Made by a program: the position numbers and the translations under genes
Notes under the pieces: model-generated
Told to the model about the DNA's origin: nothing
Database searches by the model: none
Seen by the model: only the letters and a program-made list of their open reading frames with translations
In this document: positions 24,579 through 25,701 of the stretch, piece by piece
Position numbering within the stretch: position 1 is the first letter of the stretch
How the letters are laid out: every line of letters begins with the position of its first letter
Source: Alphaproteobacteria bacterium
GTDB lineage: Bacteria > Pseudomonadota > Alphaproteobacteria > Rs-D84
Direction: 5' to 3'
Assembly: GCA_015062545.1 (NCBI GenBank)
Contig: SUUL01000001.1
Span: 96,375-160,374 of the forward strand
DNA length: 64,000 nucleotides

Positions 24579-24608
24579 TTGACAAATTCTGTTTATGTGT
24601 AATAATAT
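24579..24608 (+). promoter_or_regulatory. candidate sigma-70 promoter TTGACA-18-TAATAT for the radical SAM gene
   Basis: Consensus -35 at 24579-24584 and an AT-rich -10 at 24603-24608. Confidence 0.45.
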
Positions 24609-24612
24609 GTAT

Positions 24613-25665
24613 ATGTCAAAACTAAATGATTTTTATCAGAACACGCTGGACAACATTCTGCCAATCGGCAGTTATGTGCGTTTATTGCCGTATGATTTGG
24701 TATTTAAGGCCACGCATTGGTGTTGGTATAACTGCCCACATTGTTGTGAGTCCGCAGGCAAAAATCGCGATAAAACATTTATCCCAGAATCTGTTATCAA
24801 GTATTATATAGACGCAGCAAAACAAGACCCACAATTTACCAACGAAGTTGTTATTACTGGTGGCGAATTAATGAGTGCTTATAACCTGATGTCACCTGAA
24901 TATGTACCGAATTTGGTTAATTATGTACTGGACAAGAAAATCAGTCTGGACATAAAAACAAACGGCGCATGGGTAAACGCACCATTGTTACGTGGCAGGA
25001 TTTTTAACGATTTACGCAATCTGGCAAACAATCATAACCCCTTAGGTTTTCAGATATCCTTGTCATTAGATAAATATCATCCAAACGCACTGGAAAACAA
25101 CTATGAAATCTTGAAAAATTTGGCGCAAGATAAATATATTAAGATTCCTATGCTGATTCATATTAGCGGTTTTGACGCAGACAAGCACATGTATCAGACA
25201 TTAATCACAAAACTGAAACACACACCCAAAATCAAGATAGACGAAGTTGGCGTTCTGAGCACAAGCGGTTCTTTGATAAAAATGATACGATTGAATAAAC
25301 ACGTATGTGTTCGCTATTCAACAGCCCCATGCCCGTTCGCAAACGGTCGCGCAAAATACTTGCCAGAAGCAGCCCCCGTTGAATTACCGCAATTCAGTTT
25401 TATCGCGGGCACACAACAAAACCCATCTGTCCTGGTGGCTTTTGACGCAGCAGGAAATGTAACACTGGGGGAAAATTCCGGCAAAAAGATTTCCGTACCA
25501 TGGCGCGATAAAAATGGAAATCCCCGGCCTTTGCCGGCAATTAAGGCCGATTTAGTAAAACAAACCAGAATTGAAAACTTTAAGTTAATCCATCATGAAA
25601 CCATAAAATCTATGAAAAACGACTTTATAAACAAAATGAATAAAATTGGAATAAAAATTCGTTAA
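24613..25665 (+). CDS. radical SAM domain protein of unknown function
   Basis: CWYNCPHC (CX3CX2C) near the N-terminus, glycine-rich VVITGGE SAM motif about 45 aa later, two additional C-terminal Cys (CVRY..APCPF). Start is ambiguous (24595, 24607 or 24613). Monocistronic, with its own promoter and terminator. Confidence 0.6.
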   Translation: MSKLNDFYQNTLDNILPIGSYVRLLPYDLVFKATHWCWYNCPHCCESAGKNRDKTFIPESVIKYYIDAAKQDPQFTNEVVITGGELMSAYNLMSPEYVPNLVNYVLDKKISLDIKTNGAWVNAPLLRGRIFNDLRNLANNHNPLGFQISLSLDKYHPNALENNYEILKNLAQDKYIKIPMLIHISGFDADKHMYQTLITKLKHTPKIKIDEVGVLSTSGSLIKMIRLNKHVCVRYSTAPCPFANGRAKYLPEAAPVELPQFSFIAGTQQNPSVLVAFDAAGNVTLGENSGKKISVPWRDKNGNPRPLPAIKADLVKQTRIENFKLIHHETIKSMKNDFINKMNKIGIKIR

Positions 25666-25671
25666 AAAATT

Positions 25672-25694
25672 GCCGGCATTTGCCGGCTTTTTTT
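25672..25694. terminator. bidirectional intrinsic terminator (gccggcatttgccggc + T7)
   Basis: Member of the CCGGCAtttGCCGG hairpin family, between convergent radical-SAM and parB genes. Confidence 0.7.
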
Positions 25695-25701
25695 AACATT
25701 T

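Follow-up and report, generated by a model that had tools for sequence, protein, structure and literature searches.

The gene located between pal and parB in the window (the whole stretch of 64,000 nucleotides that was analysed) is best explained as encoding a radical SAM enzyme that is functional and binds one [4Fe-4S] cluster. This reading was considered fairly probable as a whole: the product would be a single-cluster, EpeE-derived enzyme of an uncharacterised family with an accessory role. The family would, as the best explanation of its sequences, be a sister of the EpeE/YydG peptide Cα epimerases. It is small and was found only in gut and rumen bacteria of Candidatus Enterousia (order Rs-D84), and where it is kept, it is under purifying selection (median dN/dS of 0.13).

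The list of open reading frames gave a radical SAM frame of 356 aa on the plus strand (24595-25665). Because homologues begin at MSK, ATG 24613 was taken as the start codon; the resulting length of 350 aa agrees with that proposed in an earlier reading of this DNA, which was made from the letters alone and is called here the sequence-only reading. The in-frame ATGs at 24595 and 24607 fall within the promoter and are unlikely starts. The features of the locus were located as follows.

24508 to 24535, no strand assigned: intrinsic terminator hairpin ACACCGGT-AAAC-ACCGGTGT between pal and the radical SAM gene (terminator scan).
24579 to 24584, plus strand: -35 hexamer TTGACA (promoter scan).
24598 to 24606, plus strand: extended -10, TGt AATAAT (promoter scan; 11/12 matches, TG present).
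24613 to 25665 including the stop codon, plus strand: radical SAM coding sequence, 350 aa (open reading frame list, homologue starts, dN/dS, AF2 model).
24721 to 24747, plus strand: cluster motif C37-x3-C41-x2-C44-C45, of which CX3CX2C itself (C37-W-Y-N-C41-P-H-C44) occupies 24721 to 24744 (sequence).
24856 to 24867, plus strand: T82-G83-G84-E85, the SAM-binding GGE motif, invariant in the family alignment and aligned to TGGE of YydG.
25345 to 25353, plus strand: G245-R246-A247, conserved, where the beta-rich C-terminal domain begins.
25438 to 25488, plus strand: A276-K292 (AFDAAGNVTLGENSGKK), a conserved beta-hairpin with a Gly-rich loop, nearly all invariant in the family alignment.
25672 to 25695 (hairpin 25672 to 25687), no strand assigned: bidirectional intrinsic terminator GCCGGCATTTGCCGGC plus T-run (terminator scan, both strands).

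The promoter and terminator scans indicated that the gene is monocistronic, with its own promoter and one terminator on each side, and the flanking genes were those named in the sequence-only reading. The Pal neighbour carries an OmpA domain and a lipobox and scored 122 bits on TIGR02802 versus a cut-off of 125; parB, on the other side, is convergent with the radical SAM gene. Because an A-run precedes the hairpin at 24508 to 24535 and a T-run follows it, this terminator can act both ways, and a homologous hairpin follows pal in relatives. The terminator at 25672 to 25695 is common to the convergent radical SAM gene and parB and is conserved in relatives.

The promoter had been described as TTGACA-18-TAATAT. 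The TTGACA element is real and in most relatives recurs as TTGACA(AA) with the spacing to the start codon unchanged, but the proposed -10 scored 10/12, versus 11/12 for TGt-AATAAT. The spacer between the -35 and the extended -10 is 16 nt, and the -10 ends 6 nt 5' of the ATG. Since with either reading of the -10 transcription would begin at the ATG or directly beside it, the mRNA is predicted to be leaderless; no Shine-Dalgarno sequence was found in the sequence upstream of this ATG. Promoters with at least 10 of 12 matches ending 5-9 nt before the start codon were found for 35 of 68 family genes versus 35 of 998 other genes.

The protein was assigned to the radical SAM superfamily by its CX3CX2C motif, its GGE motif and a partial TIM-barrel core. 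Both motifs had been recognized from the sequence alone and proved to be intact and conserved: C37, C41 and C44 were 99% conserved among 83 family sequences. A fourth conserved cysteine, C45, directly follows CX3CX2C, and no other cysteine was conserved among these 83 members. The Pfam Radical_SAM model (PF04055) matched with 29.8 bits versus a gathering score of 29.5 and denotes the generic domain only. Neither SPASM nor Fer4 of Pfam matched the window protein, and the cysteine conservation confirmed the earlier statement that a SPASM/twitch cluster is absent. The C-terminal pair of cysteines mentioned with that statement exists as C232 and C240 but is not conserved in the family.

The AF2 model had a pLDDT of 92.6, with strands predicted at 271-278 and 282-285. 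In the family alignment, G245 and R246 were invariant and A247 was at least 90% conserved. The GRA motif is common across the wider superfamily; the Lys-containing Gly-rich loop GENSGKK is not conserved there. The segment A276-K292 is devoid of cysteine, and its loop reads TLGENSG.

No specific curated family of NCBIfam or Pfam claimed the window protein, those of viperin, QueE, NrdG, HemW, SplB and RlmN included; this supports its earlier description as a stand-alone radical SAM enzyme of unknown function. The best NCBIfam match was YydG (TIGR04078), with 26.9 bits versus a cut-off of 300. When 33 members of the wider superfamily were compared with TIGR04078, the best E-value was 2.5e-11, and none of them reached any family cut-off. 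No family-model or close structural match to QueE, NrdG, PFL activase, HemW/HemN, SplB, RlmN/Cfr or MiaB/RimO was obtained. The sequence-only reading had named a confident housekeeping assignment of the QueE or HemW kind, with conserved synteny, as an outcome that would contradict it; the searches gave no such assignment.

The profile of the family, compared with the PDB, retrieved EpeE/YydG with an E-value of 1.7e-7 and nothing else significant, and the superfamily profile retrieved it with an E-value of 2.8e-18, the next match having 2.2e-9. In agreement, hhalign gave a probability of 96.6% (E-value of 4.9e-10) against YydG, and EpeE/YydG was the top Foldseek match (E-value of 1e-9, TM of 0.50-0.56). 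Judged by sequence profile and predicted fold, EpeE/YydG is the one specific relative. It is the peptide Cα epimerase of the Bacillus subtilis epipeptide system (yydFGHIJ/epe; PDB 8ai1-8ai6). Its second [4Fe-4S] cluster is bound in a twitch-type (T-SPASM) domain (PMC13012085), and its Cys223 donates a hydrogen atom to the Cα radical (PMC8326336, PMC13012085).

The C-terminal motifs of YydG were taken from partial YydG proteins, which a database search with a YydG fragment had found. The YydG C-terminal sequences carry CPGYD...YPCCSP...C..C. In a manual register, G245-R246-A247 would correspond to VGAAK of YydG, and A276-K292 may take the place of the Cys222/Cys223 segment in the YydG twitch hairpin ...VYHHDGEIYPCCSP, a register that hhalign does not support. 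The distance from GRA to the hairpin is approximately 30 aa, which equals that in YydG. A sequence resembling (F/Y)xxDGxV, AFDAAGNV, also has YydG-like spacing, and the hhalign alignment stops short of that region.

The family comprised 239 matches among 1.84 billion representative proteins and was present in 65 species-level genomes. Nearly all of these are titled Enterousia or uncultured (alpha)proteobacterium; the exceptions were a contig assigned to a Muribaculaceae bin and another assigned to a Rickettsiales bin. Candidatus Enterousia is uncultured and has a reduced genome of <1 Mb (PMC12306168). These bacteria are partner-dependent and have about 850 genes. Sequence subgroups of the family followed synteny and the clades of their hosts, and broad horizontal spread was not apparent.

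Presence of the gene was studied in a screen of 31 related loci independently anchored on the neighbouring TPR gene, and it was present in about 5 of them (5/31). Counts of 90%-identity clusters (742 for TPR versus 82 for the radical SAM protein) were dropped in favour of this screen, since the TPR clusters include many that hardly differ from one another, and the two counts are not comparable. Several empty pal-parB sites keep the two terminators and a remnant of TTGACA, and they look like deletion scars. Such scars at the absences would point to loss rather than gain, and since the gene is missing, with scars, from most related genomes, it is not essential. The possibility that it is an essential core gene of a reduced genome was rejected for the same reasons. 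The best explanation of these sequences is that the gene was ancestral to the lineage and was later deleted repeatedly.

The radical SAM gene was also the fastest-evolving gene locally, with 47% identity versus 64-93% for its neighbours. The window enzyme is nearer to the enzymes of a clade with 70% ParB identity than to those of its own clade; horizontal transfer would explain this discordance, but unequal rates account for it equally well. Dispensability, patchy distribution and fast evolution speak for an accessory or conflict-type role more than for a housekeeping one.

The neighbours of the gene vary among relatives and include pal, a MacB-like ABC pair, bamD, parB and gpsA; many are envelope genes. 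Neither within approximately 1 kb of the enzyme nor beside the ABC transporter was a conserved small ORF or precursor peptide found in 60-odd loci. The absence of obvious partner genes, pointed out in the sequence-only reading, is thus borne out. A gene of the split MacB-like ABC pair was immediately upstream in 20 of 68 loci, on the same strand in 12 of these 20, with gaps of -23 to +167 nt. For the pair, the models of MacB and of the darobactin exporter (DarD) gave the best scores, far above that of lolCE, and its identification as LolCDE was therefore rejected. Proteins with a lipobox upstream of family genes were Pal, BamD and three others, one of them beside a distant paralogue. Counted over independent gene clusters, these amount to a weak enrichment (4 of approximately 20 versus a background of 6%), and no functional link to lipoproteins is claimed. 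An Rfam scan of the window returned four tRNAs and nothing else.

The mechanism outlined here is a proposal. The family would have kept the SAM-cleaving core, together with a beta-rich C-terminal domain in place of the twitch-type domain of EpeE. All cysteines of the auxiliary cluster would have been lost, as would Cys223, the thiol that donates hydrogen. The cluster, once reduced, would cleave SAM to the 5'-deoxyadenosyl radical, and this radical may abstract hydrogen from a substrate that is bound between the C-terminal hairpin and the barrel. The radical thus formed on the substrate would then be resolved with neither electron transfer from a second cluster nor a cysteine donor. Since both of these are missing, a redox-neutral or elimination-type outcome would be expected. 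Residues that may take part are D278, E287, K292 and R246, which are charged and invariant.

Judged from descent, the most likely substrate is a peptide or protein with its gene elsewhere in the genome, though with a likelihood somewhat short of even, and a nucleotide or sugar-nucleotide is the main, more tentative competitor. Radical SAM families often switch substrate. RiPP-type enzymes almost always adjoin a precursor gene, and peptide-modifying relatives nearly always carry auxiliary clusters; for viperin and DesII, the single-cluster enzymes among the structural neighbours, the substrates are nucleotides or sugar-nucleotides. Those invariant residues that are specific to the family are charged and polar and may be no less suited to a small molecule that is polar or phosphorylated than to a peptide. 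It is rather unlikely, but conceivable, that this EpeE-derived enzyme performs an undescribed radical modification of a peptide or of an envelope or secreted protein, such as a lipoprotein before its export, and serves as an interaction tool for partner microbes or the host. Its chemistry would differ from that of EpeE, because neither the thiol donor nor the auxiliary cluster is available. Loss, fast evolution and a strong leaderless promoter would, if this were true, mark a tool of partner or host interaction.

Among the alternatives, modification of a nucleotide or sugar-nucleotide in the style of DesII/BlsE, acting on an LPS/envelope precursor or a salvaged metabolite, was regarded as improbable. 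A single cluster would suffice for it if the reaction were redox-neutral or an external reductant were used, which accords with the lack of an auxiliary cluster. The invariant charged and polar residues, including those of the GENSGKK loop, the outer membrane and LPS export genes of the genome (LptD, LptF/G and Pal) and the frequent envelope neighbours are also consistent with such a role. However, EpeE/YydG is singled out over the other solved enzymes by nine orders of magnitude, the GENSGKK loop is restricted as described above, and neither in the window nor in the 65 loci was a glycosyltransferase or sugar-nucleotide gene found beside the enzyme.

Maturation of a secreted ribosomal peptide, with the precursor encoded elsewhere and export through the neighbouring MacB-type ABC pair, is quite unlikely. 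Kinship with EpeE, a sister that has an ABC exporter in its operon, the pair upstream in those 20 loci with its DarD resemblance, and the patchy presence and fast evolution, which would suit an antagonism locus, speak for it. On the other hand, the 60-odd loci yielded no conserved small ORF by enzyme or transporter, and family genes that follow a MacB-like permease still keep their own promoter. Moreover, the ABC pair also occurs in genomes devoid of the enzyme (loci L086 and L092-L095) and lies approximately 7 kb from the enzyme in the window, and the thiol donor for EpeE-type epimerisation is missing.

A viperin-like antiviral function, in which a single gene would convert an NTP to a chain-terminating analogue, had been suggested in the sequence-only reading and appears very unlikely. 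The protein is stand-alone, has a single cluster and is of the right size, and patchy presence and fast evolution, here the fastest locally, are typical of defence genes. The matches to viperin models were weak, at 14.5 bits on NCBIfam viperin (NF038283) versus a cut-off of 180 and at 15.1 bits (E-value of 0.003) on PADLOC pVip, and EpeE is clearly closer. The viperin motif has Asn and His at positions -7 and -5 from the first cluster Cys; the residues before C37 are L-V-F-K-A-T-H-W (VFKATHWC), with Val at -7 and Lys at -5. In addition, the family is confined to one lineage with subgroups following host clades, its absences bear the scars of loss rather than gain, and no defence-island context was seen. 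A scan of viral contigs with the family alignment returned no relatives, and BFVD gave generic radical SAM matches only. The dispensable, patchy and fast-evolving character of the gene speaks in favour of the sequence-only reading, and a defence-like function is conceivable, but the viperin type finds no support.

A divergent housekeeping enzyme modifying RNA or protein, or a glycyl-radical activase of NrdD/PFL, is just as improbable: although the surrounding genes in the window are all core genes, one source labels a homologue 'organic radical activating enzyme' and NrdG2 matched weakly (19 bits versus a cut-off of 131), most related genomes lack the gene, no adjacent glycyl-radical enzyme was found anywhere in the surveyed loci, and the RlmN already noticed in the window was confirmed as genuine (54701-55807). 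The earlier idea of tRNA or nucleotide modification has no point in its favour other than the basic character of the protein (pI of 9.2), which is ordinary in an AT-rich genome.

The preferred reading, a single-cluster enzyme derived from EpeE, concerns a cleanly delimited family with a confident fold model and a well-studied sister. Within the huge radical SAM superfamily, families of known function are a minority, and an uncharacterised one is unsurprising in itself. What separates the window family from EpeE is the lack of the thiol donor and of the second cluster, the two features by which the chemistry of EpeE is defined; it represents a natural experiment on an epimerase scaffold that lacks both. 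Since close genomes either have the gene or show a clean deletion of it, phyletic profiling across Enterousia should expose the substrate or partner. An optional, strongly promoted enzyme in a genome of this size probably bears on the dealings of the cell with its surroundings.

Compared with known systems, the family stands apart from DesII and BlsE, which act on sugar-nucleotide and nucleoside substrates: no significant sequence-profile match to them was obtained, and no biosynthetic gene cluster surrounds the window gene. BlsE was dropped as an example of an enzyme lacking an auxiliary cluster, since the 2013 BlsE paper itself proposes two clusters. Viperin and pVip differ in their C-terminal domain, which is beta-rich in the window family, and in the upstream Asn/His; a further difference is that the window family is inherited vertically within one lineage. 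The SPASM/twitch maturases (SkfB, SuiB, CteB, anSME and PqqE) bind an auxiliary [4Fe-4S] cluster or two and in many cases have an N-terminal domain for peptide recognition, whereas the window family has neither. In contrast to EpeE/YydG, the family has no auxiliary-cluster cysteines, Cys223 or Asp210, and its C-terminal domain was not alignable by hhalign. The EpeE operon encodes a precursor peptide, a protease and an ABC exporter, whereas the window gene is monocistronic and has no precursor peptide or protease gene nearby. EpeE is found in Firmicutes, and the window family in Gram-negative gut alphaproteobacteria with reduced genomes. At the same time, the two are of similar length and share C-x3-C-x-HCC (CDHCC in YydG), TGGE....Y, NG(A/F)W, S-x-D-x-YH and F-x-D-(L/M), and their C-terminal domains may also have in common a G-x-A-K motif that is followed, approximately 30 residues on, by a beta-hairpin.

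The radical SAM gene has pal upstream and parB, which is convergent, downstream. Because its homologues open with a conserved MSK, the N-terminus of 82 of 82 database homologues and 65 of 65 genomic relatives, the start was placed at the ATG at 24613. This gives a protein of 350 aa, the length proposed in the sequence-only reading. The features of the locus are listed below.

24508-24535: terminator hairpin 3' of pal (terminator scan and sequence)
24579-24584 (+): -35 element TTGACA of the enzyme promoter
24595-25665 (+): longest ORF of the enzyme, 356 codons
24598-24606 (+): -10 element TGt-AATAAT, 16 nt after TTGACA; 11 of 12 consensus matches
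24721-24747 (+): cluster motif C37-WYN-C41-PH-C44, followed by a fourth conserved cysteine, Cys45
residues 82-85: TGGE
25672-25687: bidirectional terminator common to the enzyme gene and parB (terminator scan and sequence)

The TTGACA element reported earlier was confirmed, and the 18-nt spacer and TAATAT proposed with it (10/12) were outscored by the 16-nt spacer and TGt-AATAAT (11/12). The -10 element ends 6 nt 5' of the ATG and a Shine-Dalgarno sequence is absent; therefore, the mRNA is predicted to be leaderless. It appears to be transcribed from a near-consensus extended -10 promoter whose layout is conserved throughout the family. The arrangement TTGACAAA, 16-18 nt, -10, 5-9 nt, ATG was found upstream of most relatives regardless of the upstream gene, even directly 3' of an ABC permease. 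A promoter with at least 10/12 matches occupied such a position in 35 of 68 family genes versus 35 of the 998 other genes of those loci. Because of this recurrence and enrichment, the layout was not attributed to chance, and the proposal that the gene is an independent transcription unit was borne out. Four further genes in the window (7522-9768 (-), 17114, 50793 and 60723-61196 (-)) had promoters with at least 10/12 matches ending 6-9 nt before the start codon; leaderless transcription may be fairly frequent in this organism.

Pfam detected only the generic Radical_SAM domain (29.8 bits; gathering score, 29.5). Among 83 aligned close homologues, the family, C37, C41, C44 and C45 were the only conserved cysteines. 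The C-terminal cysteine pair noted earlier (C232 and C240) is present in the window enzyme, but the family does not conserve it. No curated NCBIfam family was reached; the best hit was YydG (26.9 bits versus a cut-off of 300), and NrdG2 scored 19 versus 131. The family profile had 239 matches at E ≤ 1e-3, 36 of them at E ≤ 1e-30, among 1.84 billion representative proteins, and the family is therefore small. A distant tier of 280-390-aa proteins shared the motifs CxxxCxHCC, GGE, KTNxxW, SxDxxH, GRA, FDxxG and (P)Y/W..G..KPL..IK.EL, and none of these proteins reached an NCBIfam cut-off either.

A genome-collection scan found the enzyme in 65 species-level genomes, with 35 to 72% identity to the window enzyme; identity in metagenomes was up to 99%. 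In nearly all, the title named Candidatus Enterousia or an uncultured (alpha)proteobacterium of gut, rumen or faeces; by binning, two contigs were exceptions, one Muribaculaceae and one Rickettsiales. A search of viral contigs found no relatives of the enzyme, and a BFVD search gave generic radical SAM matches only. [quoted passage not shown] The gene content of the window fits this picture of a reduced genome, since all of its genes have core functions: fmt, def, rmuC, infC, a family-4 UDG, pal, parAB, rsmG, gpsA, der, a MacB-like ABC pair, mreB, LptD, LptF/G, RlmN, MutS, MnmG, aminoacyl-tRNA synthetases, ComEC and a VirD4-like protein. Three ORFs had no Pfam match (30673-31269 (-), 16307-17068 (+) and 59133-60137 (-); 198, 253 and 334 aa); the first two also had no NCBIfam match, and the 198-aa ORF is conserved in related loci.

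Distant paralogues of the enzyme occupy similar housekeeping contexts. In L080 (JAEXCU010000001.1 67991-78980), a 329-aa paralogue has an ABC-F gene on one side and virB4/virB3 on the other; the contig also carries a family member about 45 kb away (L070, 15523-32458). The metagenomic contig L078 carries two radical SAM genes (4447-5460 and 6001-7047) 0.5 kb apart, and in L074 (6001-7883) a short form of 284 aa overlaps the beginning of a Lys/Gln-rich protein of 343 aa that has no known domain. As in L080, virB3 and virB4 adjoin the paralogue in L073, and a coupling-protein gene stands directly 5' of the radical SAM gene in L084. The window itself encodes a VirD4/TraG-type type IV secretion coupling protein (7522-9768 (-)) and a ComEC competence channel (17114-19009 (+)).

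Across 68 enzyme-anchored loci, no consistent companion gene was found, and a search for a conserved small ORF beside the enzyme gene was likewise negative. The downstream gene was almost always convergent (parB in 32 loci, gpsA in 19, dCMP deaminase in 5 and infC in 4), and the upstream gene was variable: pal in 22, pnp in 6, bamD in 5, either gene of a MacB-like ABC pair (its same-strand permease in 12, its divergent ATPase in 8) and various others. This pair was also found in genomes from which the enzyme is absent, and its scores on the models for MacB and the darobactin exporter DarD were far above those for LolCDE. The window has a split ATPase/permease pair (MacB_PCD and FtsX; 32769-33491 and 33514-34731, +) that adjoins mreB and likewise scores much better on MacB and DarD than on LolD/LolCE; if the organism has no other such pair, its machinery for lipoprotein release is either very divergent or has been replaced. 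The same-strand gene directly upstream often encoded a lipoprotein, namely Pal (24076-24489), BamD or two other lipobox proteins (the window, L027, L072 and L049-L054), and an unrelated lipobox protein precedes a distant paralogue (L076, 5576-5992). Counted per independent gene cluster, this enrichment was weak. Pal of the window has an OmpA domain and a lipobox (TIGR02802, 122 bits versus a cut-off of 125).

Absence of the enzyme was screened in loci anchored on the neighbouring lineage-specific TPR gene (four look-ups and 46 metagenome loci), using every family and superfamily sequence. Of the 31 informative loci, only 5 had the enzyme within 10 kb of the TPR gene; a universal gene should have appeared in about 72%, because the TPR gene was at most 8 kb away in 49 of the 68 enzyme-anchored loci. 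The enzyme is thus present in roughly one fifth to one quarter of related genomes, and the 5/31 count ruled out a near-essential core gene, as might be read from the 65 reduced genomes. The longest ORF of the TPR gene in the window overlaps rsmG (27577-28260, -) by about 185 nt (28076-28260); since its homologues have 537-540 aa, its true start should lie near 28160. The longest rsmG ORF is likewise overlong (227 aa versus 185-186 aa in homologues).

In many related genomes pal faces parB directly, and two kinds of empty site were found. One has a single bidirectional terminator in a gap of 49-60 nt. In the other (L090, L092, L093-L095 and L125), two terminator hairpins are separated by 35-60 nt, and in L092 and L093-L095 the interval contains a TTGACA remnant. 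These two-hairpin sites look like scars of the radical SAM cassette, being the expected remains of a clean deletion of the coding sequence. The simplest history is that the gene is ancestral and dispensable and was lost repeatedly during genome reduction. Further empty pal-parB spacers were seen in L105-L108, L115 and L120. In L083, a relative without the enzyme, the xseB-parB spacer (4000-4270) contains a stretch of higher GC content that looks structured, is closed by a terminator and may encode a small RNA.

Sequence subgroups of the enzyme matched synteny types and ParAB clades, and inheritance was therefore considered mainly vertical. The median dN/dS was 0.13. Among 18 genomes with about 83% identity in ParA and ParB, the enzyme was the fastest-evolving gene locally, with a mean pairwise identity of 47% (minimum, 34%); the means were 93% for Pal, 86% for ParA, 84% for InfC, 80% for ParB, 72% for GpsA, 69% for UDG and 64% for the TPR protein. 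Residues 1-24, 115-144, 160-234 and 325-350 were variable, and the cluster loop, SxDxxH strand, GRA motif and hairpin were conserved. The window enzyme is more similar to copies from another, more remote clade (ParB 70%) than to the copies in its own ParAB clade; this discordance could reflect unequal rates or an exchange of alleles. The enzyme is accordingly an accessory, fast-evolving and repeatedly lost one, and the gene is evidently real, constrained and independently transcribed, its product being a predicted single-cluster radical SAM enzyme.

EpeE/YydG, a Bacillus radical SAM peptide C-alpha epimerase, is the closest known enzyme. Against PDB sequences, the family profile matched it at E 1.7e-7 (next, E ≥ 0.15) and the superfamily profile at E 2.8e-18 (next, 2.2e-9; viperin, 5e-5). 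Alignment with YydG-family fragments by hhalign covered residues 33-216 (probability 96.6%, E 4.9e-10). The AlphaFold2 model (pLDDT 92.6, pTM 0.89) matched EpeE/YydG in Foldseek at E 1e-9 and TM 0.50-0.56 (viperin, E 1e-5); figures given alongside this model were SkfB 15.1, BlsE 14.9, SuiB 14.5, viperin 13.8, anSME 13.5, PFL activase 10.4, QueE 9.4, SplB 9.1 and RlmN 8.5.

The enzyme would cleave SAM to a 5'-deoxyadenosyl radical, which would abstract hydrogen from a substrate bound in the space between barrel and C-terminal hairpin; the substrate radical would be resolved with neither a thiol donor nor a second cluster. From descent, the most likely substrate is, tentatively, a peptide or protein whose gene lies elsewhere. 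A serious, if doubtful, rival is a nucleotide or sugar-nucleotide, in keeping with the absence of an auxiliary cluster, the charge of the invariant residues and the isolation of the gene. Within it, the viperin-type antiviral role suggested earlier has at most a slim chance: patchy, fast-evolving behaviour would fit, but every membership test run was negative (NCBIfam viperin, 14.5 versus 180; PADLOC pVip model, 15 bits) and EpeE is closer. A housekeeping identity (QueE, HemW, NrdG or RlmN-like) was rejected for lack of a match to those families and for dispensability. The earlier observation of a radical SAM enzyme of unknown function holds, and its interpretation is supported in part.

Beyond generic radical SAM motifs, the enzyme and EpeE/YydG share C-x3-C-x-HCC, TGGE....Y, NG(A/F)W, S-x-D-x-YH and F-x-D-(L/M). 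In EpeE, an extended twitch domain houses a second [4Fe-4S] cluster, and Cys223, in a loop opposite SAM, gives a hydrogen atom back to the C-alpha radical of the peptide (PMC13012085, PMC8326336). YydG-family C-termini read ...VGAAK, about 30 aa, CPGYD-IVYHHDGEIYPCCSP..., and those of the enzyme family read ...NGRAK, about 30 aa, VLVAFDAAGNVTLGENSG; this correspondence is a manual register, the hhalign alignment stopping short of the region. The YydG-like spacing and a hairpin-like (F/Y)xxDGxV pattern, with strands predicted in the AlphaFold2 model, are retained, whereas the hairpin has no counterpart, conserved in the 83 sequences, of the YydG-family cysteines. The enzyme thus appears to lack both the second cluster and the catalytic cysteine. 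Because it departs from three defining features of the EpeE family despite an EpeE-like scaffold, it should not be filed as a member; it belongs to a small new family that is sister to EpeE and was encountered here in Enterousia-type gut alphaproteobacteria only. An orphan radical SAM family is by itself unsurprising, and this one is a variant inside a known superfamily rather than a novel type of system. Its contrast with EpeE, together with the presence/absence polymorphism, makes its function unusually tractable.
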